32,000 nucleotides of DNA from Gemmata obscuriglobus (GCF_008065095.1 NZ_CP042911.1:8130001-8162000), one strand, 5' to 3'. Shown: positions 136 through 14,022, counted from the stretch's first letter. The notes: a model not told the origin generated them from the letters alone. Translations and numbers: made by a program.

Positions 136-1593
136 ATGTCTCGCCCTTTGGTCCCGGCTGACGCGGAACTGCTCGGGCGGCTCCTCGCGTTTGACATCGA
201 CGGCGGCGCGGTCGCGCTACCGTTTGCCGCCCGACTCGCCCGCGAGCACGGTTGGTCACGCTCCTATGCCGAGCGCGTCATCGAAGAGTACAAGCGGTAC
301 GTCTTTCTGGCCGCCACAACCGGCTTCAAAGTGTGCCCGTCCGAGGACGTTGACGCCGCGTGGCACCTGCACCTCACGTACACCAAGTCTTACTGGCAAA
401 GGCTCTGCGGCGAGTTGATCGGCCGCCCGCTGCACCACGAGCCCACGACGGGCGGACCGGCAGAGGGCGATAAGCACCTGGCGATGTACACCGCCACACT
501 CGACGCTTACGAGCGGGCGTTCGGGCGCACCCCGCCGGCGGACGTGTGGCCCGGCGCGGACGCGCGGTTCGGCGACGACACCCGGCACCGCGTCGTCAAC
601 ACCGCCCGGAACTGGGTCATCCCGAAGGCCCCCATCAAGCGGGCCGCAGGCCTGGCTGCAGGGTTCGCGCTGGTCGCGGTCCTGCTGCCGGGGTGCGACG
701 ACTCGTTCAACCCGTTCGCGCTAAAACGCGCCGACATTCTCTTCCCCCTCGTGCTGGCGCTCGTCGCAGCCGTGTGCGGCGGGCGGGTGATCCGGTCGGT
801 GCTGCGCACCCCGAACGCGACGCCCGGGGACGACGCCGTTGTGCTGAACTGGGCGCAGACCGCGTACCTCGGCGGCGGGACGGAGCGGCTGACGACCGCG
901 GCGCTCGCGCGGGTCGTCGGCCGCGGGCTGGCGGAAGTCGCTCCGGACGGCAAGACCCTCTGCGCGGTCGGCCCGGCGCCGGAGGACGCGAGCGCGGTGG
1001 AGCGCGCGGTCCTCGGTTCGCTGCCGGTGTCGAACGAGGTGACCGCCCTGAAGCCGGTGGAACTGGCCGTGGGGGCCGCGTTCGCTCAGGAAGCCGAGCG
1101 GCTCGCGCGCGACGGCGTCACCCTCCCGGTGGCGCGAAAGGTTCGCATCGCGCTGGCCTCGCTGCTCCCGTTCGCGCTGGTCTATTTGTGCCTCGTGCTC
1201 CCGCAGTTCGTTTTCGCGGCGTGGGCCGGCCGACCGACTTTTTACCTCCTGATCACGTCGGTTGTGGGCGGGGTGGCCGGACTGGCCGTCCTGCTGTCCG
1301 GCTCGCTCCGCCTCACCAACCGCGGCCGGGCAGTGCTTGCGACGCAGAAGGAGCGCCACGAAGCGCTGAAGGCCGCGGCGCGGTGGGAGAGCACTGGCGA
1401 CGCGGGGATGGCGGTGGCGCTGTTCGGAACGGCCGTGCTGGCGGGCACCGCGGTCGCGCCGCTCCAGGCGTGGTACCCGCGGCAAACCGGTGAGGCGTCG
1501 CCGAGCGGGTGCAGTTCCGGGTGCGGATCGGGATGTGGCGGGGGCGACGGCGGCGGTGGATGCGGCGGCGGGTGCGGCGGGGGCGGCGACTGA
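136..1593 (+). CDS. Multi-pass membrane protein with a GRDP-like (DUF1399-type) N-terminal domain, a TIGR04222-like body and a Cys/Gly-rich C-terminal tail
   Basis: 485-aa ORF with an ATG start. The N-terminal motif DVDAAWHLHLTYTKSYWQRLC fits the DxxWHxHxL signature of glycine-rich-domain-protein-like domains. There are several hydrophobic helices (AAGLAAGFALVAVLLPG, ILFPLVLALVAAVCGG, LASLLPFALVYLCLVLPQFVF, FYLLITSVVGGVAGLAVLL). The C-terminus is GCSSGCGSGCGGGDGGGGCGGGCGGGGD, as I recall being described for TIGR04222 membrane proteins. Family names are from memory of motifs, not a search. Confidence 0.8.
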   Translation: MSRPLVPADAELLGRLLAFDIDGGAVALPFAARLAREHGWSRSYAERVIEEYKRYVFLAATTGFKVCPSEDVDAAWHLHLTYTKSYWQRLCGELIGRPLHHEPTTGGPAEGDKHLAMYTATLDAYERAFGRTPPADVWPGADARFGDDTRHRVVNTARNWVIPKAPIKRAAGLAAGFALVAVLLPGCDDSFNPFALKRADILFPLVLALVAAVCGGRVIRSVLRTPNATPGDDAVVLNWAQTAYLGGGTERLTTAALARVVGRGLAEVAPDGKTLCAVGPAPEDASAVERAVLGSLPVSNEVTALKPVELAVGAAFAQEAERLARDGVTLPVARKVRIALASLLPFALVYLCLVLPQFVFAAWAGRPTFYLLITSVVGGVAGLAVLLSGSLRLTNRGRAVLATQKERHEALKAAARWESTGDAGMAVALFGTAVLAGTAVAPLQAWYPRQTGEASPSGCSSGCGSGCGGGDGGGGCGGGCGGGGD

Positions 1594-1799
1594 CCGCCGG
1601 CGGCGCACGCAGCGCGTTACGGACACGCTCACAGTGCCTTCCACTTTACGCACGTTCGACGTGCCGACTTGAGACAACTGGGTCTCCCGTGACTACCCGG
1701 ACGGTTCTCGAACGGGTACGATAGCGCAGCAACTGAACCTCCGGCGGCGTGCGGCGGTCCTTCCGGTCGCCCTGCCTTGCGCTCCACGGACGCCCGCGA

Positions 1800-3542
1800 A
1801 TGGACCCGGTCATCGGTATCGACCTCGGTACCACCAACTCCGCCGCCGCGTTCCTCACCGACGACGGCCCCGAGATCATCCCCAACGCGATCGGCGGCCG
1901 TCTCACGCCCTCCGTCGTCGGCGTGGACGAGCGCGGCGCGGTGCTGGTCGGCGCCGCGGCCAAAGAGCTGCAAGTGCTGAAGCCGGACCGCTGCGCGAGC
2001 CTGTTCAAGCGGTACATGGGCACCGACCGCAAGCTCACCGCCGGCGGGCGCGAGTTCACCCCCGAAGAGCTGTCGAGCCTGGTGCTGCGGGCGCTCAAGG
2101 CCGACGCCGAAGCGTACTTCAAGCGCCCGGTGTCGCGCGCGGTCATCACCGTGCCGGCGTACTTCAACGACCGGCAGCGCAAGGCGACCATCGCGGCGGG
2201 CCGGATCGCCGGCTGGGCCGTCGAGCGCATCCTGAACGAGCCGACGGCCGCGGCCATCGCCTACGGGTTCCACGACGCGGGGGCCGACAAGAAGCTGCTC
2301 GTGTTCGACCTGGGCGGGGGAACGTTCGACGTGTCGGTGGTGGAGCTGTTCGAGGGCACCCTCGAGGTGAAAGCGTCCAGCGGCGAGAGCGCGCTGGGAG
2401 GCGAGGACTTCACCCGGGCGCTGGCGGCGCGGCTCCTGGCCGCGCAGGGCGTGTCCTACGAGCAGGCGGAGGCCCGCACCCCGAAGCGCGTGTCGCGGCT
2501 GATCCAGCAGTGCGAGCGGGCGAAGTGCGCCCTCAGCCGCGAGGAAACCGTTACCGTTCGGGTGCCCGACGAGCACGGGGAGTTCGGCGCCGGGTGCGCG
2601 GAGGTGCCGGTCACGCGGGCGCAGCTCGACGCGTGGGTGTCGCCGACGCTGGCGCGGGCCGAGTTGCCCGTCCGGCGCGTGCTGGGCGACGCCCGGCTGA
2701 CCCGCGACCAGATCGACGAGGTCATCCTGGTCGGCGGCGCGACCCGGATGCCGCTGGTGGTGAGCCGCGTCACCGAGCTGCTCGGGAAGGAGCCGCGCCG
2801 GCGCCTCAACCCGGACGAGGTGGTCGCGCTCGGGGCGGCGGTCCAGGCCGGGCTGGTCGGCCGCGCCGCCGCGGTCGAGGAGCTGGTGGTCACCGACGTG
2901 GCCCCGTTCACCCTCGGCGTCGAGGTGAGCAAGGACCTCGGCCCGGAGAGCCGCAGCGGGTACTTCGACCCGGTGATCGACCGCAACACGACGATCCCGG
3001 TGAGCCGCGTGAAGCGGTACTCGACCGTACACCCCAATCAGACGGCGATCAGCGTGCGCGTGTACCAAGGGGAGTCGCGCCGCACCGACGACAACCTGCT
3101 GCTCGGGGAGTTCGAGGTGCGGGGCGTCCCGCCCGGCCCGGCGCACCAGCCGGTGGACATCCGGTTCACCTACGACCTGAACGGCGTGCTCGAGGTCGAG
3201 GCCACGGTGGTCGCCACCAAGAAGACGACCTCGCACGTGATCGCGCGGCACGCCCAGGGCATGACGGAGGCGCAGGTGCGGGCCGCCGTGGCCGCGATGG
3301 CCAAGCTCAAAACGCACCCGCGCGACGAGGAGGTGAACCGGTTCGTGCTGCTCCGCGCCGAGCGCGCGTTCAAGGAGCTGCCGGCCGAGCTGCGGGACGC
3401 CCTGGGCCTGCTCCTCGACGGGTTCGAGGCCGCGCTCGGGAGGCAGGACCCGGCCGTCATCGCCCAGCACCGCGAAGAGCTGGAACGGTTCCTCGCGCTG
3501 TACGACCCGCAGACCGATGGGCCGAACGGAGACGCCCCATGA
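1800..3542 (+). CDS. Hsp70 family chaperone, HscC-like (non-housekeeping paralog, 580 aa)
   Basis: The ATG at 1800 gives MDPVIGIDLGTTNSAAAF. Canonical nucleotide-binding-domain motifs are present: IDLGTTNS, ITVPAYFNDRQRKAT, NEPTAAAIAYG, DLGGGTFDVS, LVGGATRMP. The substrate-binding beta domain (VTDVAPFTLGVEV) is followed by a short atypical C-terminus without the DnaK lid/EEVD-type tail. The longer ORF from the GTG at 1749 adds a non-conserved leader. Confidence 0.92.
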   Translation: MDPVIGIDLGTTNSAAAFLTDDGPEIIPNAIGGRLTPSVVGVDERGAVLVGAAAKELQVLKPDRCASLFKRYMGTDRKLTAGGREFTPEELSSLVLRALKADAEAYFKRPVSRAVITVPAYFNDRQRKATIAAGRIAGWAVERILNEPTAAAIAYGFHDAGADKKLLVFDLGGGTFDVSVVELFEGTLEVKASSGESALGGEDFTRALAARLLAAQGVSYEQAEARTPKRVSRLIQQCERAKCALSREETVTVRVPDEHGEFGAGCAEVPVTRAQLDAWVSPTLARAELPVRRVLGDARLTRDQIDEVILVGGATRMPLVVSRVTELLGKEPRRRLNPDEVVALGAAVQAGLVGRAAAVEELVVTDVAPFTLGVEVSKDLGPESRSGYFDPVIDRNTTIPVSRVKRYSTVHPNQTAISVRVYQGESRRTDDNLLLGEFEVRGVPPGPAHQPVDIRFTYDLNGVLEVEATVVATKKTTSHVIARHAQGMTEAQVRAAVAAMAKLKTHPRDEEVNRFVLLRAERAFKELPAELRDALGLLLDGFEAALGRQDPAVIAQHREELERFLALYDPQTDGPNGDAP

Positions 3543-4852
3543 CCGCCGACCCCCGCGCCCGGTGGGCCGAGCAGTTCGGAATCCCCGCCGACGCGCCCCC
3601 GGACGAGGCGGCGGCGGCGTTTCTGCGCAGCCTGCCGGCGGACCTGGTGCCCGCGCCCGTGCAGGCACTGGCGGCCGGTGAACTCGCCGGTGCCGAACTC
3701 CCGACCGGGCTGGAGGACGGGCGCGAGACGGCGCTCGATGCGGAGGTGGAAGCGTTCGCGGGGCGGTTCTGGTCGTTGCCCCCCGCCGAGCGGCTCTTGG
3801 AGTGGGACCGCCTCTCGCACCGCGGCGCGAACCCGGTGCGGCTGCGCGAACTCGAACCGGGGCTGGACGCGGCCTCCGCCGCGCTCGGCGACCCCGTTGC
3901 GGAGGAACTGGCCGAACAGTTCCGCACGCTGTTCGTGCTGCCGCCGCGGGCGCGGGCGATCCAGCGGGCGCAGTGGCTCCTCGCCCGCGCCGACGACATT
4001 GACCGGTGGCGGTCGGCGCTGCCGGTGGTGCAGCGCGACGCGCCGGCCCTGGTCGCGCTCGAGCCCCGGCTGCGGACCGCCCTCGACCCGGCGTTCGGCC
4101 CCGCCGCGCTGGCCGCCGGCGCCCGCGCGCCCACGGTCCGGGCGGGAGGGCCGGCTGGTTTTCACCCGCACGCGCACCAGTTCGGCGCGCACGAGCCGGC
4201 CGCGTCGCACGGAAGCCGCGGGGCGAACTGGCGGCAGGTCGCCAGCCCTGCTATCGGGATCGGCGTCATCCTGCTGCTCAAAGCCCTGCTCACCGGACCC
4301 ACGGACGGCAAACGGCCGAGCGACGGCCCCTGGGTGCCGAACAGCTCGGTTCGAATGCCAACGTTTGAGAAGCCCCAGCGCCCGCTGTTTACCGTCGCCG
4401 AAGTGGCCGAGTTTCGCAGGTACGAACAGAGCCGTGGGTTCAAAGGGAACGACGCGCCGCCGCGTGACTATGCGGCCTGGATCGCCGCCGGCAAGCCGGA
4501 GCCGCTGCCGCCGATTGCCGACACCGGGCCGAAGCGTTCCGATGCGAAATTCACGGCGGAGGAGGTCGCCGCGTGCCAGTTATACGAGAGCGAGCACGCG
4601 CGTGACCGCTCCGCCGTCCGCCCGCCCATCTACGAAAGGTGGCTGAGCGCCGGCCGGCCGGAGGCGACCGACGGGCGCGAGCCCGGGCCGAACGAGGTCC
4701 GCGTGTACTTGGACGCGTTCCTGATCGCCGCATGTCAGCGGCACGAGCGCGTGAGCACCGCTCCCCCCTTTCGGTACGGCGACTGGGTCCGCGCCGGCCG
4801 GCCGACGAAACCAGGGTCCTACATCATCCCGCAGCAAACAACTTCACCGTAG
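3539..4852 (+). CDS. Hypothetical single-pass membrane protein with three C-terminal ~35-38-aa repeats
   Basis: The ATG at 3539 overlaps the Hsp70 stop (ATGA at 3539-3542). The product is 437 aa with one hydrophobic helix, VASPAIGIGVILLLKALLTG (about nt 4238-4294). Three related repeats are present: FTVAEVAEFRRYEQ...PPRDYAAWIAAGKPE, FTAEEVAACQLYES...RPPIYERWLSAGRPE and YLDAFLIAACQRHE...PPFRYGDWVRAGRPTK. High GC3. I recognise no family. Confidence 0.75.
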   Translation: MTADPRARWAEQFGIPADAPPDEAAAAFLRSLPADLVPAPVQALAAGELAGAELPTGLEDGRETALDAEVEAFAGRFWSLPPAERLLEWDRLSHRGANPVRLRELEPGLDAASAALGDPVAEELAEQFRTLFVLPPRARAIQRAQWLLARADDIDRWRSALPVVQRDAPALVALEPRLRTALDPAFGPAALAAGARAPTVRAGGPAGFHPHAHQFGAHEPAASHGSRGANWRQVASPAIGIGVILLLKALLTGPTDGKRPSDGPWVPNSSVRMPTFEKPQRPLFTVAEVAEFRRYEQSRGFKGNDAPPRDYAAWIAAGKPEPLPPIADTGPKRSDAKFTAEEVAACQLYESEHARDRSAVRPPIYERWLSAGRPEATDGREPGPNEVRVYLDAFLIAACQRHERVSTAPPFRYGDWVRAGRPTKPGSYIIPQQTTSP

Positions 4853-4861
4853 CCCGCCCCG

Positions 4862-6238
4862 ATGGACGCACCGCCGCTGCCCGACGACCCGCGCGACTGG
4901 CCCGCCGACCCGTTCGCCCTGCTCGGGGTGCCGCGGTCGGTGAGCGAGGCCGACCTCAAGCGCGCGTACACGCGGCTGATCCGCAAGTACAAACCGGACC
5001 ACGCGCCGGACGAGTTCCGCCGCATCCGCGAGGCCTACGAGGCGGCGATCGAAATGAGCCGCTGGTACCGGGACGCGCCGCCGCACGCCCCGGACGTGCC
5101 CCCACCGTTCCCGGCCGCCACGTTTTCGGCACCCGAGGGGGGCGCGTCTCCGGAACCGGTGCCCGGAACCCCGCGGCCGTTCGTCGATCCGGTCGCCGCG
5201 GCGTGGGCCGACGCCGGGCGGGGCGCTTTTGCGGACGCCTACGCGGCGCTGGCCGCCGTCGAGCGCGAGGGGGGCGACCGTCCCGACGTGCCGCTCCGAC
5301 TGTACTGGCTGCTCGCGCTGCGGCCCGCGCTCGACGCCGACCGCACCCGACACGATTGGCTGGCGCTGGCGCTGACGCGCGCCGGGCTGGGCGGCCCGGC
5401 GGTCGAACTGTACCGGCGCGAACTCGCGGCGGCCCCCGAGGCCCTCTACGGCCCGTACACGGCGCTGCTGGACCACCCGGAGGCACCGGGGGCCGCTCTC
5501 CTCGCCCTTGCGTCCCTCCGGCTGGACGCCGCCGCGGCGCACGAGTGCTGGCTGAAGATCGAACTCGACCTCGACGCGCTCGCCCGCCGGGTGCGCGAGC
5601 TGGACGAGGTGCTATGGTTGAACCACCTCGCGAACGTGATCGGCCGCATCGCGTGCCGGCAGCCGTCTGTCGCGCTGCAATGCACGCCCCACCTGGGCAA
5701 CCTCAAGCACCTCGAGCTGCGCCACCCGGAGGCGTTCGACCGGATCGACCGCGACTGGACGTTAGCCGAGCTGTGGAACCGCTCGCTGCTGGTTCCGGAG
5801 CCGATCCGGCGGGCGGTGGCGTTCGGCTGGGGGCCGGGCCGGCGCGGGGCGCTGCGGGCGGTCTCAGAGTGGGCGCGGGCGGCGCCGGCCGAGGCGCTGC
5901 GGAAGTGCGACCGGGTGAACGGCCCGCAAGCGGCTTTACTGGCCGCGTTCGCGCGGATGCTTGAGGCCCACCGGGACGAAGCGGGGCCGTGGGACGAGTT
6001 CCCGCCCGAACTGGTGCGGGGGCTGGTGCGGGCGCGGCTCGCGCCCGCGCTGCGGGTCCTGTACGCACAGGCCCGCCCCGAGGTGCTCCAGTTCCTGCTC
6101 GCCGAGCGCATCGATCCGAACGAGCTGGTCGCGGCGTGTGCGGTCGACGGCGAGCCGCTGGTCCGGACGTTCGCGGCGCGCGTGCGCGAGGACGGCGCGC
6201 TGGCCCTGGTGTACCGGGCCGCAACCGCCTTCGGGTGA
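4862..6238 (+). CDS. J-domain (DnaJ-like) protein with a KPD variant of the HPD motif and an uncharacterised ~390-aa C-terminal region
   Basis: ATG start 9 nt after the previous stop. The N-terminus DPFALLGVPRSVSEADLKRAYTRLIRKYKPDHAPDEFRRIREAYEAAIE aligns with J-domain helices I-III. The KPD codons aaa ccg gac are at 4991-4999. Confidence 0.85.
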   Translation: MDAPPLPDDPRDWPADPFALLGVPRSVSEADLKRAYTRLIRKYKPDHAPDEFRRIREAYEAAIEMSRWYRDAPPHAPDVPPPFPAATFSAPEGGASPEPVPGTPRPFVDPVAAAWADAGRGAFADAYAALAAVEREGGDRPDVPLRLYWLLALRPALDADRTRHDWLALALTRAGLGGPAVELYRRELAAAPEALYGPYTALLDHPEAPGAALLALASLRLDAAAAHECWLKIELDLDALARRVRELDEVLWLNHLANVIGRIACRQPSVALQCTPHLGNLKHLELRHPEAFDRIDRDWTLAELWNRSLLVPEPIRRAVAFGWGPGRRGALRAVSEWARAAPAEALRKCDRVNGPQAALLAAFARMLEAHRDEAGPWDEFPPELVRGLVRARLAPALRVLYAQARPEVLQFLLAERIDPNELVAACAVDGEPLVRTFAARVREDGALALVYRAATAFG

Positions 6239-6313
6239 GCGGCGGGGCGGGCCCGGTTTAGCGCTCGCCACTCGCCCCGAAAAGGGCTTGTTTGTCGGCA
6301 TTTCTGGTTTCGG

Positions 6314-6411
6314 TGTGGCCCGCTCGCTCCGCGAGCGGTGCTCTGCCCGTCAGACCGGCCGTGGCGCATCATCGGCGGCTTTGCAACCGCTCGCGGAGCG
6401 AGCGGGCCACA
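6314..6411. repeat. 26-bp perfect inverted repeat (arms 6314-6339 and 6386-6411) with a 46-nt spacer, between convergent genes; REP-like element or bidirectional terminator
   Basis: tgtggcccgctcgctccgcgagcggt is the exact reverse complement of accgctcgcggagcgagcgggccaca. Each arm also contains its own small palindrome (ccgctcgc tcc gcgagcgg). Confidence 0.7.
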
Positions 6412-6430
6412 ACGAAGATGGGGGCGGTTC

Positions 6431-8434
6431 TCACTTCTGCTTCGGGGCGGGCCAGCGGCGGAGCGTGCCCCCCTCGTCACCCGAGTACACCGCGTCACCC
6501 GTCGGGGCGAACGCGACCGTCCGCACCGGCCGGTCGTGGCCCACGAACGCGGCGAGCGGAAGCCCGTCCTCGGCGCGGTAGACGCGCACGGTCGCGTCCG
6601 CGCCGCCGCTCGCCAGTAGCTTGCCGTCCGGGCTGAGCGAGCAGCACACGACGGCGCCGTCGTGGCCGCTCAGCTTCGTGAACGTGCCCGAACTAGGCTG
6701 CCGCACGGCCAGCCCCTCGCGCCCGGCCACCGCCACCCGCTTCGCGGCGTACGACATCGCCCCGATCGCCCCAACCTGGGCCGGGAGCACCCCCTTCGAC
6801 TTGCCCGTCTTCAGGTCCCACTGCCGCACGGTGCCGTCGGCGCCGGCCGAGAGGAGCGAGTCGGCGGTCACGAACGCGACCGCGGTGACCGCCGACGTGT
6901 GGCCCTTGACGCACACCGCCGAGGTGGGCCGGCCGGCCTCGCGGAGCCACAGCCACACCATCTTGTCCGCGGACCCGGCCGCGATGCCTTGTCCGTCCGG
7001 CGACACGTCGACCCCGTGGATGTTGTCCGTCGGGCCGCGGAGCGGGCGCCCCTGGTTGCCGGTGCTCAGGTCCCACAACTGGACCCCCATGTCCGACGCG
7101 CTCAGCCGGATCGCGCACGTCGCCACCCACTTGCCGCTCGGCGCGATCGCCAGGTGCTCCACCGGCCCGAGGTCGCCCAGGATCGCCTTCTGCTCCTTCA
7201 GCGTCGCGGGGTGCCACAGCTTCAGCGCCCCGTCGGCCCCGGTGAGCAGGAACGCCCCGTCCGGGGCCGCGGCCATCGCGCCGATCGCGCCGTCGTGCCC
7301 CTTCGCGTACACCGACGCCACCACCGGGGCGGCCCGGGTCCCGGGTTTCGGCGGGGCCTCCTTCAGGATCGCGTCGAGCACGGCCGCCAGTTCCGCGGGC
7401 GTCTGGTACCGGTCCTTGGGGTCCAGGGACATCAGCTTGCGGATGACGGCGTCCACGGTGACGGGCACGTCGGACCGCTTGGCGGCGGCGGACGGCGGCG
7501 GCTCGGTGAGCTGCTTGCGGAGCTTCGCCGCCAGCGTCTTGCCCGGGAACGGCACCTCGCCGGTGAGGCAGAAGTACATGGCCCCGCCCAGCGAGTACAG
7601 GTCGCTGCGGCTGTCCGCGGCCCGCGGGTTCTCGGCCTGCTCGGGCGCGACGTAGTCCGGCGTGCCCACGAACACGCCCGGCTGCGTGAGGTCGTCGGTC
7701 TCGGGGTCGACGTGGTCCACGTCGGCGACCCGCGCGAGCCCCATGTCGAGGATCTTCACCTTCGGCAGCCGGCCGGTGCGGCCCTCGGCCGGCGCCAGCG
7801 GCGACGGGCTGATCATCAGGTTCGACGGCTTGATGTCGCGGTGGACCAGCTTCACCTCGTGGGCGTGCTGGAGCCCCTCGGCCACCTGGCGGGCGTAGTA
7901 CACCACGTCCACCACCGGGAGCGGCCCCGTCTGCTTCACCAGCCGCAGCAGGTCGATTCCGGGGACGTACTCCATCGCCACGAACGGGATCTCGCCGTCC
8001 AGTTCGGTCTGGAACACGGTGACGATGCACGGGTCGCTCAGGCGCCCGGAGGCGCGCACCTCGCGTTTGAACCGCGTGCGGGAGCCGGGCTGGTCGAGCT
8101 TCCCCGGGGAAATGACCTTGAGCGCCACCAGGCGGTTCACGCCCGGCTGTTTGGCCTTGTAGATGACCCCCATGCCGCCGCGGTTGATCTCTTCAATGAT
8201 CTCGTAGCCGGCGATGACCCGGCCCGGTCCGATCGCGGCCCCGCGGGCGGGCGCCGAACCGGCTTCCGGGGGCGGGGGCGAAATCGGTCCGGTCGCAGGG
8301 GGACGAGTGTTCTCGCGGGTGTTCTCGCTCGCCAACGCGCAGACCGGGCAGACGGTGCGCGGGTCGTCCGGGACCGGCTCACCGGTCGGGTGCTCCCAAA
8401 CGTTCCCGCAAGGGCAAGTGAGGCGCGTTGCCAT
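6431..8434 (-). CDS. Ser/Thr protein kinase with an N-terminal zinc-ribbon and a C-terminal WD40 beta-propeller
   Basis: The N-terminus MATRLTCPCGNVWEH...CPVC is zinc-ribbon-like. Hanks kinase motifs are present: GGMGVIYKAKQ, HRDIKPSNLM, DMGLAR, APEQ. The C-terminal half has repeated WD-type blades (GHDGAIGAMAAAPDG, LWD, VRQWD, VRVY). An alternative upstream in-frame start lies at 8473. Confidence 0.9.
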   Translation of the reverse strand: MATRLTCPCGNVWEHPTGEPVPDDPRTVCPVCALASENTRENTRPPATGPISPPPPEAGSAPARGAAIGPGRVIAGYEIIEEINRGGMGVIYKAKQPGVNRLVALKVISPGKLDQPGSRTRFKREVRASGRLSDPCIVTVFQTELDGEIPFVAMEYVPGIDLLRLVKQTGPLPVVDVVYYARQVAEGLQHAHEVKLVHRDIKPSNLMISPSPLAPAEGRTGRLPKVKILDMGLARVADVDHVDPETDDLTQPGVFVGTPDYVAPEQAENPRAADSRSDLYSLGGAMYFCLTGEVPFPGKTLAAKLRKQLTEPPPSAAAKRSDVPVTVDAVIRKLMSLDPKDRYQTPAELAAVLDAILKEAPPKPGTRAAPVVASVYAKGHDGAIGAMAAAPDGAFLLTGADGALKLWHPATLKEQKAILGDLGPVEHLAIAPSGKWVATCAIRLSASDMGVQLWDLSTGNQGRPLRGPTDNIHGVDVSPDGQGIAAGSADKMVWLWLREAGRPTSAVCVKGHTSAVTAVAFVTADSLLSAGADGTVRQWDLKTGKSKGVLPAQVGAIGAMSYAAKRVAVAGREGLAVRQPSSGTFTKLSGHDGAVVCCSLSPDGKLLASGGADATVRVYRAEDGLPLAAFVGHDRPVRTVAFAPTGDAVYSGDEGGTLRRWPAPKQK

Positions 8435-8740
8435 GCGCGGTTCCGAGCGACAGTGGGCGGAGAGTGCGGGCACCCTATTCTATCGCATTTCCGCGCGGCG
8501 CCCCCGCGCGGAATACGGTCCCTGCGGCGGTCCGCCGGTTGCAGCCCTCAATAACGAGCGCGGCGGAGGAACCGTTTCGTAGCGGCCCGCGTCGCGCGGG
8601 TGGGACGGTTCGGGCGCGGGAGGTGCTGCGAGTCGCAACAGCAGGGTGCGCCGAGGGCAGCGGTTCTCGGCACGGATATGATGCCCGTCCCGGAGCGAAC
8701 ATTTCACCCCAGACAGACCCGAGGATCAAGTTCTCCGGCG

Positions 8741-10186
8741 TCAGCCGACCAGGAGCCGGCCGAGGGTGAACAGCAGTCCGGCCAGCAACATGCACGCGGG
8801 CAGCGTCAGCGCCCACGCGAGTAAGATTTTCCGACACGTCCCGCCCTGCACCCCCGACCCGTTTGCGACCATCGTGCCCGCCACGCCGCTCGACAGCACT
8901 TGCGTCGTGCTCACAGGGAGTTTGACCATGTCCGCGGCCAGAATCGTCGCCGCCGCCACCGCCTCCGCCGCCGCACCCTGCCCGTAGGTGAGGTGCGTTT
9001 TGCCGATCTTCTCCGCCACCGTCACCACGATCCGCTTGTACCCGACGCACGTCCCGATCCCGAGCGCCAGTGCGGTGCCGACCACCACCCACACCGGCAC
9101 GAACTCGATCGTCGGCGCGATGCGGGTCTTCCTCACCCGTTCCAGTTCGGCCCGGAACTCCGCAGGGGTGCCGCGGTCGGCCCCCGCCCGCTTGATTTCG
9201 CGGTTCGTCCGGAACAGCGATTGGCGCACCTCCCACCGCACGTTCTTCGGCTGGCCGTTCTCGTCCTTCTCCTCGCGCGTCCGCAGGTCGTTGAGGCTGC
9301 CGAGCCCGTCGAGGTGTCCCGCAACGTACCGGAGGTCCCGGTCCAGCGCGTCCGGCAGCGGCACCTCGTACTTCGCGTACGCCGCACGCACCTCGTTTGT
9401 GGCGTGCAGGAGTTGCGGCACCTTCTCAGGGTCGTTGACGTTAAGCGCGTAGTGGACCGGCATGAACCCGATCAGCACCAGCAGCAACAGCCCCATCCCT
9501 TTTTGGCCGTCGTTCGAACCGTGGGCGAAGCTGACCCCGCCGCAGGTGCAAATGAGCACCACCCGCACCCACCGCGGCGGGCGGTCGCCGTCGTGCGGCG
9601 GTTCGTACAGCTTCGGCTCTTTCAGCGTGCGCCGCATGACCAGGAGCAGGGCCGCGGCCACAACGAACCCGAATAACGGCGACAGGAGCAGCCCCGCCCC
9701 GACCTCGCCGGCCTTGGCCCAATTCACCCCCCTGAGCCCCTCGCCCTTCCAGAGGCTGTTGGCCATCCCGACCCCGAGGATCGAACCGATGAGCGTGTGC
9801 GAACTCGACACCGGGAGCCCCAGGTACCACGTTCCGAGGTTCCACATCACCCCGGCGAAGAGCAGCGCCAGGACCATCACGAGGGCGGCGTTGGAGTTGG
9901 CGTCGATGAGCAAATCGACGGGCAGCAGGTTCACGATGCTAAACGCCACCGCCGCCCCGCCGGCCAGAACCGTGAGGAGCGCGCCGAGGAAGTTCATCAC
10001 CCCCGAGTACAGCACCGCGGGCGTGGCCGAGAGCGTGCGGGTGTAAATGACCGTGGTGACGGCGTTGGCGGTGTCGTGGAAGCCGTTGATGAACTCGAAC
10101 GCGAACGCCACCAGCAGAGCGACGAACAGGAAAACCAGCGGCCAGCCGCCCATTTCACCGACCGCGTTCCAAAAATCCATCACCAC
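8741..10186 (-). CDS. Inorganic phosphate transporter, PiT (PHO4) family
   Basis: 481 aa. The N-terminus FEFINGFHDTANAVTTVIYT and the later GSNDGQKGMGL are the duplicated PiT signature regions. The protein is multi-pass hydrophobic with a large central hydrophilic loop. Confidence 0.9.
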   Translation of the reverse strand: MVMDFWNAVGEMGGWPLVFLFVALLVAFAFEFINGFHDTANAVTTVIYTRTLSATPAVLYSGVMNFLGALLTVLAGGAAVAFSIVNLLPVDLLIDANSNAALVMVLALLFAGVMWNLGTWYLGLPVSSSHTLIGSILGVGMANSLWKGEGLRGVNWAKAGEVGAGLLLSPLFGFVVAAALLLVMRRTLKEPKLYEPPHDGDRPPRWVRVVLICTCGGVSFAHGSNDGQKGMGLLLLVLIGFMPVHYALNVNDPEKVPQLLHATNEVRAAYAKYEVPLPDALDRDLRYVAGHLDGLGSLNDLRTREEKDENGQPKNVRWEVRQSLFRTNREIKRAGADRGTPAEFRAELERVRKTRIAPTIEFVPVWVVVGTALALGIGTCVGYKRIVVTVAEKIGKTHLTYGQGAAAEAVAAATILAADMVKLPVSTTQVLSSGVAGTMVANGSGVQGGTCRKILLAWALTLPACMLLAGLLFTLGRLLVG

Positions 10187-10771: not shown

Positions 10772-13700
10772 TTACGAGCGCTTCACCTCGCGCGGCCGCG
10801 GAGCGGTGCGGTCCTTCTGTTTCAACGTGTCCGTGAGGTTCTGTTGTGCGGGGCCGTTGCTCGGGTTGATGCTCAGGGCCGCGCGGAACTCGGCGATCGC
10901 GCCGTCGAGGTCGCCCAGATCCCGAAGAGCGTTGCCCAGGCCGTTGTGCCCGGCGGAGTGGTTCGGGTCGAGCGCGAGCAGCTCCCGGTACGCTTTCACG
11001 GCCCCGGCGGGGTCCTTCGCGGCCCGCAGAGCGACGCCCAGGTTGTACCGCGCCCGCAGATGTTTCGGGTCGAGCCGGATCGCTTCCTTGTAGGCGGAGG
11101 CGGCGCCCCGCGGGTCGCCCGTCTGGCGCAACAGCATCCCGAGGTTGTTGTGCAGCCCGGGTTCCGCCGGGGCGTAACGAAGGGCGTCGCGGAACGCGCC
11201 GATCGCGCCGTCCAGGTCTTCCCGGTCCCACAGCAAGTGCCCCAGCGCCGAAGCGGCGCCCGGGTTCGCCGGGTTCAGCTTCAGCGACTCACGGTACGCG
11301 CGGATCGCACCGGTCGTGTCGCGCTTCAACTGTAGGGCGCGGCCGAGTTCGGCGTGGGCCACCGCGGACCGCGGGTCGCACTCGACGGCCGCGCGCAAGC
11401 TCTGCACCGCCGCGTCCAGTTCGCGGGTCCGCAGCAGCGCGTTCCCGAGGTTGGCGTGCGCGGCCGCGAACTTCGGGTTCATCTCCAGCGCCTGACGGAA
11501 CTTGACGATCGCCCCGCGCAGGTCGCCGGCGGTGGCGAGCGCGGAACCGTAGTTGTTGTGGAACTCCGGGTACGGGCAGTCCGGGTCGGCGCGCATGAGT
11601 TCCTCGTACACCCGAACCGCGCCGGGGCCGTCGCCCTTCGCCCGCAGCGCGATCGCCTTAATGTTCAGCGCGTTGAGGTCGCGCGGGTCGAGGCGGAGCG
11701 CCTCGCGGGCCGCGGCCAGCGCTTCGTCGTACTGCTCGCCGTCGCGCAGCGCGATCCCCAACTTGTTCCACGCCAGCACGCTCTGCGGGCGCAGCGCGAC
11801 GGCCGCCTGGAACCACCGCGCCCGCTCGGCCGCGCCCTCCTTGGAGTTCATCGGGTACGTGCCCCCGAGTTCCATCAGCACCCGCACGCTGCCCGGCGCC
11901 CGGTCCCACTCCGCCGCCAGCAGCGCCCGCCGCCGGGCGGGGGACAGCCCCGGGCGCACCGCCGCGGCCAGCGCGATCACGAACCGCGCCGGCTGGTCGC
12001 CGAGCCCCGCCGCGGTGAGCCGGGCCAGTCCCGCCCCGTCGCGCGCCTGAACCGCCGCGCGGACGGCGTCGCGGGTCGGGTCCGGGTCCGCCTCGTGCAA
12101 GAGGGCCGCGAGGTCGGCCGTGCCGGCGGCCCCGAGCCACAGGTCCAAGGTGAGCAGCACCCGGTCGCGGATCAGCGAGTCGTTCACGCGGCGCGCGGCC
12201 TCGGCCGGCGGGGCGTTCGGTACGATTCCCGCTTGCGCGAGCGCCGTCGCCCACCGGGTCTGGAGGTCGGCGGCCAGGGGCAGTTGCCCGTTCACCGGGG
12301 TCCAGGCGAAGGTCTCGACCTCGTCGAGGCGCGTGAGCAGCGCGTGGTCGGTGCGGCACCGGGCGATGCGCGCACCGAACTCCTCGCCGCCGGGCTGGCC
12401 CTCCCGGCGGGTGACATCCGCGAGCGCGAGCGCGGCGGTAGCAGCGTCGTCGTTGCGGAGCGCGGCCTCACACCGGTCGAGGTCGGCGGCCAGGGCGCGG
12501 CGGTTGTCGGCGGCGGCGCGGGCGTCCTTCTCGCTCTGGCGCAGGTCGGCGGCGGCGCGCTCGCGCTCGGCCCGCTCGGCCTCGATCCGCCGCTCGGCGG
12601 CCTTATGATCGAGCCACCAGCCGGTTCCGGCGGCGCCGAGGAGCATGAGCGCCACCGCCGCGAGTAGCGCCAGTTGCACCCGGCGGCGCTTGCGCTGCTC
12701 GGTCGCTTTCACCTCGGCCGCGGCGCGCTCCGACTCGGCGGCCCGGAGCCGGGTTTCCACCCCGGCGCGGTAACGCGCGACCGCGTCCGCGACCGCCTTG
12801 CCGTCCGCGGGGCGGTCCGCGGCCCAGGGGGCCAGACAGCGGCGGGCCAACTCCACCAGGTCCGCGGGCGCGCCGCTCGCGCCGAGCGCGGCGAGCGGTT
12901 CGTCGAGGATGCCCGCGGCGGTCGCTCCGATCACCTCGGTCGAGTGGCGCCCCGCGAACGGGCGCGAGCCGGTGAGCACCTCACACAGGACGGCGCCGAG
13001 GCTGAACACGTCGGCCCGCGGGTCCACGGGCTCGCCCCGGGCCTGCTCGGGCGCCATGTACGAGGGCGTCCCGAGCACCTGTCCCGCGGCCGTCACTTCG
13101 GTACTGTGGTCGGACGAGAACGCGTCCGACGACCCGGTGCGGTCGCCGAGCGTTTTCGGCTCGTCTCCGGTTCCCTGTGCTCGGGTCGGCGCGTCCGGCC
13201 CCCCGGCGGTTTTGGCGAGCCCCCAGTCCATGACCTGCACTTCGCCGAACTCGCCCACCATGATGTTCGCGGGCTTCAGGTCGCGGTGGACGACGCCGCG
13301 CGCGTGCGCGAACCCGACGGCCAGGCACACGTGCTCGAAGATCTGGACGAACCGGTTCAGCTCGTCGGCCGGGGAGGCGCGGTCGCGGAGCAGGGCTGTG
13401 AGGGTGCGCCCCTCGATCAGCTTCATTACGAGGAACGGCGTACCGTCGCCGAACCGCCCCAGGGCGTAAACCGGCGGAATGTTGGGGTGCGGGAGCTGGG
13501 CCGTGATTTCGGCTTCGATGACGAACCGCCGGGCGCCGTCGCGGCCGGCGCGCGGGAGCAGCACCTTGATCGCGACCGGGCGGTTGAGCGTGAGTTCGCG
13601 GGCGGCGAGGACGCGCCCCATGCCGCCGCGGGCGAGTTCGCGGGCGACCTCGTACCCGGGCACGGCGGGCACCTCTTCGCCCAGCATTTGCCGCCGCGCC

Positions 13701-13798
13701 GCGAGCGGATCGGTGAACCGGGCGACGGTCGCACTGGAATCGGGCGCGTGGGGCGAGTTCGGTCCCGACACGCGGGTCGCGGACAGATCGTCGGGCAT
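10772..13798 (-). CDS. Ser/Thr protein kinase with a transmembrane segment, coiled-coil region and C-terminal TPR array
   Basis: Kinase motifs are present: GGMGRVLAAREL, HRDLKPANIMV, DWGLAK, APEQARG. The TM helix is VQLALLAAVALMLLGAAGTGWWL. The C-terminal half has about 9 TPR-like 34-aa repeats (AHANLGNALL, AHAELGRALQ, LHNNLGMLLRQTGD and others). The ATG at 13798 has GAGG 9 nt upstream. There is an alternative GTG at 13852. Confidence 0.9.
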   Translation of the reverse strand: MPDDLSATRVSGPNSPHAPDSSATVARFTDPLAARRQMLGEEVPAVPGYEVARELARGGMGRVLAARELTLNRPVAIKVLLPRAGRDGARRFVIEAEITAQLPHPNIPPVYALGRFGDGTPFLVMKLIEGRTLTALLRDRASPADELNRFVQIFEHVCLAVGFAHARGVVHRDLKPANIMVGEFGEVQVMDWGLAKTAGGPDAPTRAQGTGDEPKTLGDRTGSSDAFSSDHSTEVTAAGQVLGTPSYMAPEQARGEPVDPRADVFSLGAVLCEVLTGSRPFAGRHSTEVIGATAAGILDEPLAALGASGAPADLVELARRCLAPWAADRPADGKAVADAVARYRAGVETRLRAAESERAAAEVKATEQRKRRRVQLALLAAVALMLLGAAGTGWWLDHKAAERRIEAERAERERAAADLRQSEKDARAAADNRRALAADLDRCEAALRNDDAATAALALADVTRREGQPGGEEFGARIARCRTDHALLTRLDEVETFAWTPVNGQLPLAADLQTRWATALAQAGIVPNAPPAEAARRVNDSLIRDRVLLTLDLWLGAAGTADLAALLHEADPDPTRDAVRAAVQARDGAGLARLTAAGLGDQPARFVIALAAAVRPGLSPARRRALLAAEWDRAPGSVRVLMELGGTYPMNSKEGAAERARWFQAAVALRPQSVLAWNKLGIALRDGEQYDEALAAAREALRLDPRDLNALNIKAIALRAKGDGPGAVRVYEELMRADPDCPYPEFHNNYGSALATAGDLRGAIVKFRQALEMNPKFAAAHANLGNALLRTRELDAAVQSLRAAVECDPRSAVAHAELGRALQLKRDTTGAIRAYRESLKLNPANPGAASALGHLLWDREDLDGAIGAFRDALRYAPAEPGLHNNLGMLLRQTGDPRGAASAYKEAIRLDPKHLRARYNLGVALRAAKDPAGAVKAYRELLALDPNHSAGHNGLGNALRDLGDLDGAIAEFRAALSINPSNGPAQQNLTDTLKQKDRTAPRPREVKRS

Positions 13799-14022
13799 CG
13801 TCGGGCCTCGGGAGGGTATCCCCAATGATAGCCCGTCGGCCGCGGCGGTCACGCGCCACTCTGTCGCTCGCCGGAAAAGACGAGTTTTGCGCCTTTACCA
13901 GTGACTACAAAGTTATGGTTCCATTCGTACCGCTCGCGCGGGCCGAACGGTGCTCTGTTAAGGTGATTAGCAAAATTCTAGGGCTGGGTTTGGGTTGGGG
14001 CGGCGGCCCGGATCAGACGGTT

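Follow-up and report, generated by a model that had tools for sequence, protein, structure and literature searches.

Bacteria have three types of Hsp70, and least is understood about HscC. In Escherichia coli MG1655, hscC (ybeW) is divergent from a row of genes with the order ybeQ (Sel1), ybeR (DUF1266), djlB (ybeS), ybeT (Sel1), ybeU (DUF1266) and djlC (ybeV), in which djlB and djlC encode J-proteins and both the ybeR-djlB and the ybeU-djlC pairs overlap by 4 nucleotides (nt). This hscC neighbourhood (E. coli K-12 674000-692000; locus L071 in our set, locus coordinates 1571-9394) is a duplicated Sel1/DUF1266/djl module, and the HscC papers that we consulted seldom mention its DUF1266 and Sel1 partners. 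The phenotypes of E. coli hscC are sensitivity to Cd2+ and to UV. Because extra small genes are coupled to each djl gene in E. coli, a multi-component HscC locus is not unprecedented. Mayer (2021) gives as hallmarks of HscC that lobe I has a deletion (DnaK residues 76-101), that an insertion lengthens loop L1,2 by 4-8 amino acids (aa) and that lid helix B is shortened by a deletion, and HscCs have been reasoned to need no nucleotide exchange factor (PMC8215388).

Here we describe a cassette of three genes that encode an Hsp70, a single-pass membrane protein and a soluble J-domain protein. The window that we analysed is a stretch of 32,000 nt (GCF_008065095.1, NZ_CP042911.1:8130001-8162000), and all coordinates are counted from its first letter. 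Its source is Gemmata obscuriglobus, and the products of the last two cassette genes are 100% identical to the database entries of that species. The cassette is best read as a specialised Hsp70 system of HscC type, of the same little-understood kind as HscC/DjlB/DjlC. Two of its features are new, a phylum-wide His to Lys replacement in the J-domain triad and a sizeable unannotated family of membrane proteins as obligatory third component. No published description of this cassette was found in a literature search. The cassette and its junctions are arranged as follows:

1594-1799, plus strand: intergenic region 5' of the Hsp70 gene (206 nt), presumed site of the cassette promoter and 5' untranslated region
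1800-3542, plus strand: gene for the HscC-type Hsp70 (580 aa counted from the ATG)
3539-3542, plus strand: ATGA stop/start overlap of the Hsp70 gene and the membrane-protein gene, read from the sequence
3539-4852, plus strand: gene for the single-pass membrane protein (437 aa)
4853-4861, plus strand: spacer of 9 nt between the stop of the membrane-protein gene (TAG, 4850-4852) and the start of the J-protein gene (ATG, 4862)
4862-6238, plus strand: gene for the soluble class-C J-domain protein (458 aa)

A preliminary description of this locus had reported four co-directional open reading frames (ORFs), these three and one upstream of them, together with the ATGA overlap and the 9-nt spacer, and all of them lie where it had placed them. 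The gap that it gave as 207 nt in front of the Hsp70 gene is real, and its length is 206 nt by count. The Hsp70 ORF can be extended to a GTG at 1749, but the N-termini of DnaK and HscC coincide in alignment with the ATG at 1800.

The HscC-type Hsp70 and its conserved cassette

The Hsp70 matches PF00012 (E 1.2e-141) and scores under the DnaK and HscA equivalog cut-offs of NCBIfam-type models. Against the HscA models it reached 403 bits vs. a subfamily cut-off of 620 and 398 bits vs. an equivalog cut-off of 709. End to end it is 42% (41.8%) identical with E. coli HscC (BLASTP 5e-143), compared to 37.8% with DnaK and 34.3% with HscA, and it is similar to HscC in length. The two proteins also share three indels. 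Lobe I of the nucleotide-binding domain has a 24-residue gap as in E. coli HscC (DnaK residues ~76-99 by alignment), loop L1,2 of the beta part of the substrate-binding domain (SBD) carries an insertion of 8 aa as compared to 4 aa in E. coli HscC, and lid helix B has an 11-residue gap in common with the E. coli protein. The architecture consists of the nucleotide-binding domain, an LVVTD linker (nt 2883-2897), the SBD and a shortened helical lid. The earlier remark that there is no DnaK-type lid is thus right as worded, and the lid that is present is of the shortened HscC type.

The ATPase residues equivalent to D8, K70, E171, D194, T199 and D201 are kept. In 43 aligned family sequences R167, Q378, P419, K70, E171 and T199 are kept in 40-43, and the exceptions are alignment gaps. 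R167, Q378 and P419 contact the HPD motif in the structure of DnaK with a J-domain (PMC8215388). Judged by pairwise identity, the three shared indels and the intact catalytic and allosteric core, this Hsp70 is a true HscC-type paralogue and belongs to the same subfamily as E. coli HscC.

A J-protein profile built from 18 diverse homologues was scanned against one genome per GTDB species, which gave 70 loci. The six-frame ORFs of these loci were searched with the four window proteins and then with a profile of the N-terminal domain (N-domain) of the membrane protein. With the window proteins, the order Hsp70, membrane protein, J-protein on one strand was found in most Planctomycetota loci, and with the N-domain profile the same order was found in almost all Planctomycetota loci with upstream DNA. 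The order is present in Gemmataceae, an Isosphaera-labelled metagenome-assembled genome (MAG), Pirellulales, Pirellula, Aureliella, Planctomicrobium, Planctomycetaceae and Zavarzinella, and the cassette is inherited with stable order across four or more orders of the phylum. Independent gene calls on metagenome contigs gave an HSP70 of 588 aa, an unannotated gene of 410 aa and a J-protein. These cassettes sit by unrelated housekeeping genes, for example near dnaA in L075. The tight junctions recur in other genomes as well. An xTGA overlap between the Hsp70 gene and the membrane-protein gene, in frame with the homologue of the latter, is present in 16 of 39 related loci, and the membrane-protein gene and the J gene typically lie -4 to ~+13 nt apart.

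All-against-all clustering of the ORFs in the flanks of the related loci found no other conserved neighbour. Pfam and NCBIfam scans of the cassette found no GrpE, zinc-finger or DnaJ C-terminal domain, and grpE is not a conserved neighbour; the absence of GrpE from the cassette fits the published reasoning on HscCs that work free of an exchange factor (PMC8215388). The Gemmata and E. coli systems are alike in having no grpE, in being membrane-associated and in having additional genes translationally coupled to the J gene. They differ in gene order, as the three Gemmata genes are co-directional and E. coli hscC is divergent from the djl genes. The core reading of the preliminary description, a dedicated non-housekeeping HscC-like Hsp70 with intact ATPase motifs, a private J-protein and a membrane partner, is supported by the synteny, by the identity to HscC and by profile searches, which placed the last two genes in no characterised family of unrelated function. 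Its remarks on the tight junctions, on the missing grpE-like factor and on the missing DnaJ zinc-finger and C-terminal domains agree with the scans and with the other genomes.

Searches of viral contigs and plasmids found no relatives of the cassette, and PADLOC gave one marginal match only (PDC-M61B, E 0.032). Stable synteny, housekeeping neighbours and the lack of viral, plasmid and PADLOC relatives therefore mark the cassette as a core module that the phylum inherits vertically and that is neither a mobile nor a defence element. It has to be weighed that some predicted conflict systems include Hsp70, GrpE and DnaJ-fused parts (PMC7159879), and that L074 has an IS1595 and an OLD-like AAA_15/DUF4276 insertion directly upstream of the cassette. 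We nevertheless regard a role in anti-phage defence or conflict, with an Hsp70 at the centre and akin to the Hsp70-containing, GTPase-centred systems of Kaur et al. (2020), as extremely improbable. The best PADLOC match is not meaningful, the conserved neighbourhood is free of GTPase, tubulin, effector and effector-associated domains, and both the genomic setting among housekeeping genes and the stable gene order across the phylum speak against it.

L074 (1-5788) and L075 (4022-5788) are otherwise identical metagenome contigs that differ upstream of the cassette. In L074 this stretch holds the IS1595 transposase, the OLD-like AAA_15/DUF4276 pair and further small genes. The Hsp70 gene of L074 is called at only 494 aa in place of 588 aa, as if an insertion had truncated its 5' end. 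Gemmataceae-like cassettes were also seen in MAGs labelled Alcaligenaceae, Gemmatimonadaceae and Myxococcota (L014, L039, L047), and these odd labels are probably errors of binning or labelling rather than signs of horizontal transfer. The region 5' of the Hsp70 gene is near-identical in Gemmata algarum and unalignable in more distant relatives. Sequence scans of this region found no sigma-70-like consensus and no CIRCE element, and no sign of heat-shock regulation.

The J-protein and its lysine-containing triad

The J-protein is divided as follows, with structural features taken from its AlphaFold2 (AF2) model:

4907-5071, plus strand: J-domain (residues 16-70), model helices 29-42 and 49-70, Foldseek J-domain probability 1.0
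4991-4999, plus strand: triad K44-P45-D46 in place of HPD, in the loop between helices II and III of the model
5189-6223, plus strand: C-terminal all-alpha solenoid (residues 110-454), ~20 helices, predicted local distance difference test score (pLDDT) >95

The sole family match of this protein is the PF00226 J-domain (residues 16-60, E 1.1e-7, 32.2 bits vs. a cut-off of 27.8). A PDB profile search gave J-domains only, down to 2.5e-9, and no PDB relatives outside the J-domain. In the AF2 model (mean pLDDT 93) a Pro-rich linker of low confidence (residues 71-109) joins the J-domain to the solenoid, and a hydropathy scan found no transmembrane (TM) segment. These results bear out the earlier picture of a soluble-looking 458-aa protein that is recognisable only by its N-terminal J-domain. 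The word "variant", by which that J-protein had been described, can now be specified as a family-wide His to Lys change in the HPD triad. There are 137 database homologues, all from Planctomycetota where named.

Gene product and E. coli DjlB/DjlC share the same short J-domain type with an acidic third triad residue, and their sizes are alike (458 aa compared to 475 and 483 aa). The J-domain aligns without gaps to that of DjlC, with KPD opposite HPE (BLASTP and hhalign), but homology stops at the J-domain (residues 18-66 only). The triad is KP[DE] in the Gemmata family and HPE in DjlB/DjlC. DjlB and DjlC are anchored at their C-termini (TM 449-467 and 458-476), whereas the Gemmata J-protein is soluble and the TM helix is on the neighbouring membrane protein. 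This contrast had been drawn before and was confirmed by hydropathy scan.

While the window has KPD as its triad, most homologues have KPE. An alignment of 92 sequences shows no change at K44 or P45, and K-P-[DE] is present in 117 of the 117 homologues with the triad region, among 120 listed; the other three are N-terminal truncations, and none has His. The genome scan for J-proteins was biased towards KP by its search pattern, and a second pattern was also used, by which rare RPE, NPE and LPE members were found (L010, L026, L043). Firmicute relatives that lie beside HscC-like genes have Pro at the first triad position, PPD in L057 and PPE in L064. Locus L057 (3826-8057, Peptococcaceae MAG) encodes GrpE, an HscC-like Hsp70 of 575 aa, a TPR protein of 189 aa and a J-TPR protein with the PPD triad and a SEC-C zinc motif at its end, and in L064 (Limnochordia) the PPE J-protein adjoins the Hsp70. 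An alternative "H-x-P-[DE]" triad three residues downstream (H47-A-P-D) was rejected, because H47 is variable in the family and starts helix III in the model.

HPE is the triad form of known HscC partners (PMC10410713; PMC13254874). QPD and HPN variants are held to be inactive, only HPE is known to be tolerated, and it has been called "enigmatic" whether other deviations are selected (PMC13254874). A large survey of J-domains dropped non-HPD sequences from its main data set (PMC10410713). His33 of DnaJ hydrogen-bonds a backbone carbonyl of the Hsp70 interdomain linker (PMC8215388); since the partner is a backbone carbonyl, a Lys donor would be chemically plausible. The Lys deviation is clearly under purifying selection, and it occurs in a protein that is strictly syntenic with an Hsp70 whose J-contact residues are intact.

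The missing His, together with the inactivity of QPD and HPN, could also indicate that the K-P-E domain is a J-like module without stimulating activity, as in Pam16 or a "type IV JDP" (J-domain protein). The J-protein would then be a scaffold or negative regulator that holds HscC at the membrane protein but does not trigger hydrolysis, and HscC would be activated by an unlinked HPD/HPE J-protein or by its client. That the first triad position varies in the wider group (R, N, L or P) would suit such a module. We consider it unlikely, because two of the three triad residues, the Pro and the acidic one, persist, as do the Hsp70 contacts R167, Q378 and P419. A Lys side chain could donate to the same backbone carbonyl as His33 (PMC8215388), and the cassette is without a second J-protein, save for a duplicated KPE copy in L040. 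Furthermore, strict purifying selection on Lys across the phylum points to a specific contact and not to decay.

The solenoid gave no Pfam match even at E<=10, TPR and Sel1 profiles included. Its top non-J Foldseek matches were all TPR or alpha-solenoid proteins, P58IPK among them, with weak, non-significant scores (E 0.1-0.6, TM-score <=0.25). The combination of a J-domain with a helical-repeat solenoid as client- or partner-binding module resembles that of TPR class-C J-proteins such as human P58IPK/DNAJC3 and the Firmicute protein of L057. However, the Gemmata protein has the J-domain before the solenoid and no TPR match in Pfam, whereas in P58IPK the TPR part precedes the J-domain. Unlike the Gemmata cassette, the Firmicute locus has GrpE and no membrane subunit.

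The membrane-protein family and neighbouring genes

The membrane protein encoded between the Hsp70 and the J-protein has the following parts:

3539-4123, plus strand: conserved all-helical N-domain (residues 1-195), pLDDT >90 over residues 60-190
3755-3814, plus strand: motif 1, FAxx[FY]WxLxPxxRxxxWxxL, from column conservation in 222 sequences, with R85 conserved in 98%
3929-3982, plus strand: motif 2, L[FY]VLPPRxRAxRRxxWL, from column conservation in 222 sequences
4238-4294, plus strand: TM helix (residues 234-252), the sole hydrophobic segment; model helix 238-251
4382-4513, 4544-4675 and 4697-4828, plus strand: C-terminal tail of three ~44-aa repeats (residues 282-325, 336-379 and 387-430)

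Profile searches of Pfam (repeated at E<=10), NCBIfam and PADLOC found no match to this protein. Its AF2 model (mean pLDDT 81) shows a helical N-domain, a disordered linker (residues 196-233, with pLDDT <50 for residues 203-236), the TM helix and the three-repeat tail, in agreement with the 437-aa single-pass membrane protein with a triple repeat that had been described. In an exhaustive profile search the family came to 951 clusters (50% identity) at E<=1e-3, and a threshold of E<=1e-10 left 674. Among the best 150 of the 951, members are mostly 260-440 aa long, with some shorter fragments. A profile from a wider N-domain alignment gave 16 matches after a word prefilter, all unannotated, and added almost nothing.

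A hydrophobic segment follows the N-domain in 52 of 57 family ORFs of the related loci. The N-domain is conserved across the family and the tail behind the TM helix is not: Gemmatales homologues carry between one and three copies of the tail repeat, and elsewhere there are unrelated Pro-rich or charged tails. Self-alignment of the repeats gave the motif F-T-x-x-E-V-A-x-F-x-x-Y-E ... P-P-x-x-Y-x-x-W-x-x-A-G-[KR]-P with nine invariant positions. In the AF2 model repeat 3 has a beta-alpha-alpha-beta topology, which may resemble that of LysM. Pfam searches of the repeats at E<=10 gave noise only.

Several possible relationships were examined. Kinship to DUF1266 (YbeU/YbeR) was rejected (BLASTP E 4.5, hhalign probability 0.15%), and kinship to the non-J part of DjlB/DjlC, as by gene fission or fusion, was rejected because such similarity was not found. 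The membrane protein is therefore unrelated to the E. coli DUF1266 proteins and to DjlB/DjlC, and the Sel1-repeat genes are an E. coli feature. Residues 4-33 (window 3539-3640), DPRxxWAxxLGVPxDAxxxxxRxAFLxxL, have a faint likeness to helices I-II of the neighbouring J-domain. A degenerate J-like domain at the N-terminus is unsupported (hhalign E 0.016, probability 2.8%), and Foldseek gave no J-domain match.

Two to six tandem paralogues of the membrane-protein gene share one HscC-like gene on one side and one J gene on the other in L013 (5634-10001), L016 (~3300-8277), L048 (7154-9992), L010 (7907-10004) and L008 (~2200-4350). These genomes belong to some Gemmataceae and to Zavarzinella, and every paralogue has the N-domain and a TM segment. 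So many paralogues per chaperone pair would suit a membrane protein that is a dedicated client, by the logic of HscA/HscB/IscU. HscA recognises LPPVK in IscU. In Gemmata, the solenoid would bind the folded N-domain and present the LPPRxR-type motif to the SBD of HscC, and ATP-driven clamping would remodel the membrane protein. Such remodelling could switch a transmembrane signal or control the oligomeric state or turnover of the protein, with the tandem paralogues as alternative clients or sensors of one chaperone pair.

The most conserved linear motif of the family has a hydrophobic core, Pro-Pro and an Arg-rich flank, and E. coli HscC binds mainly positively charged peptides (PMC8215388). 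The variable, presumably periplasmic tails are as expected of sensor-like modules. However, the AF2 model puts the motif at a helix-turn-helix junction within a confidently folded domain, where it may be inaccessible, and the conserved neighbours include no output domain and no partner of the sigma-factor, kinase or enzyme type. A client role and an anchor role are computationally indistinguishable and not mutually exclusive. We give the client role a minor but real chance.

The likeness to HscA/HscB/IscU includes a specialised Hsp70, a dedicated class-C J-protein with a helical partner-binding C-domain, the absence of GrpE and the location in one operon, which is here proposed for the Gemmata genes (PMC8215388). 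The differences are that the Gemmata Hsp70 is 34% identical to HscA and scores under the HscA cut-offs, that there are no isc genes nearby, that the partner is a membrane protein unrelated to IscU, and that HscB has a canonical HPD.

Upstream of the cassette lies the fourth co-directional gene:

136-1593, plus strand: TIGR04222-domain multi-pass membrane protein with a Cys/Gly-rich tail (485 aa)

Its product matches TIGR04222 over residues 206-436 (E 3.6e-42, 144.6 bits vs. a cut-off of 43), and it has five hydrophobic segments by hydropathy scan and a low-complexity Gly/Cys tail. The N-terminus reached E 0.024 and 15.8 bits against the GRDP-like/DUF1399 profile PF07173, which is under the gathering score of 22.7 and covers the C-terminal part of that profile only. 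Of the earlier label "GRDP-like/TIGR04222-like with a Cys/Gly tail", the TIGR04222 part and the tail thus stand, and the GRDP part stays sub-threshold. A homologue of this gene adjoins the cassette only in Gemmata algarum (L001); in L028 it lies 8 kb off on the opposite strand. The possible membership of this gene in the unit, which the preliminary description had left uncertain, is not borne out by such adjacency and was ruled out. With this gene removed, the two uncharacterised membrane partners of that description are reduced to one.

Downstream of the cassette there are two large Ser/Thr protein kinase genes, 6431-8473 (minus strand) and 10772-13852 (minus strand), one WD40-fused and the other TPR-fused, and the gene at 6431-8473 is convergent with the cassette. 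Kinase ORFs of similar type lie near some related loci, but the family is very abundant in Planctomycetota and the proximity was therefore taken as chance. A PHO4/PiT-family phosphate transporter gene at 8741-10186 (minus strand; PF01384, 3.7e-86) is unrelated to the cassette.

A proposed Hsp70 machine at the inner membrane

With moderate confidence we propose that the three genes at 1800-6238 are a single operon. It would encode a dedicated Hsp70 machine of the HscC kind that needs no GrpE and is located at the inner membrane, on its cytoplasmic face. Strict synteny with HscC makes it likely that the J-protein is the partner of this Hsp70. The N-domain of the membrane protein would be cytoplasmic, because a signal peptide is absent and both partners are cytoplasmic. 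The solenoid of the J-protein would dock on this N-domain, and the J-domain would then trigger ATP hydrolysis in HscC, with Lys44 in the role that DnaJ His33 has toward the backbone carbonyl of the Hsp70 interdomain linker. HscC would clamp the membrane protein itself or a membrane-proximal client brought by it. Candidate sites for HscC on the membrane protein are the L-[FY]-V-L-P-P-R-x-R-A-x-R-R motif and the disordered juxtamembrane linker. The membrane anchor, which is fused to the J-protein in E. coli DjlB/DjlC, would here be a separate and duplicable subunit, and the client may be envelope-associated, as the preliminary description had suggested.

Several points weigh against this proposal. 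His to Gln in HPD abolishes J-domain function in every system tested (PMC8215388, PMC13254874). Since only HPE is known to be tolerated, the K-P-E domain may fail to stimulate the ATPase. The TPR likeness of the solenoid is statistically weak. The N-domain of the membrane protein has no detectable structural or sequence relative in the PDB, either by Foldseek with the AF2 model (best E 5) or by profile search (nothing under E 0.018), and its role as a docking platform is therefore conjecture. In the 15 aa flanking the TM helix the summed net charge is +80 on the N-side and +64 on the C-side, so that charge leaves the topology unsettled. Finally, the tandem multiplication of the membrane-protein gene is explained by a role as client or sensor no less well than by that of a pure anchor.

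The mitochondrial PAM motor (mtHsp70, Pam18, Pam16, Tim44) offers a parallel to the proposed machine, as it has an Hsp70 tethered by small single-pass or peripheral subunits and one J-type domain without the HPD His. The likeness is an analogy only, without homology, and no translocon component is linked to the Gemmata cassette. Quite doubtful, though worth stating, is a stronger form of the proposal, in which the K-P-E domain would be a fully active J-domain that evolved with HscC and the membrane proteins would be dedicated transmembrane couplers. HscC, recruited by the J-protein solenoid, would clamp their cytoplasmic domain or juxtamembrane linker and use ATP hydrolysis to exert force across the inner membrane, by pulling or remodelling. 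If this were true, the K-P-E domain would be the first natural His-less activator of an Hsp70, and bacteria would have in this cassette a counterpart, on the cytoplasmic side, to membrane-tethered Hsp70 motors like PAM or Sec63-BiP. Such a motor could serve envelope or endomembrane biology specific to Planctomycetota, with the tandem paralogues providing different periplasmic specificities.

A phylum-wide cassette in which the J-domain His is always Lys among the listed homologues, while the contact residues of the Hsp70 are intact, amounts to a natural experiment on the dispensability of the HPD His. The cassette also ties HscC to a previously unannotated family of membrane proteins with ~950 clusters. 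This family is a concrete candidate for the long-suspected membrane-protein clientele of HscC, or for its anchor.

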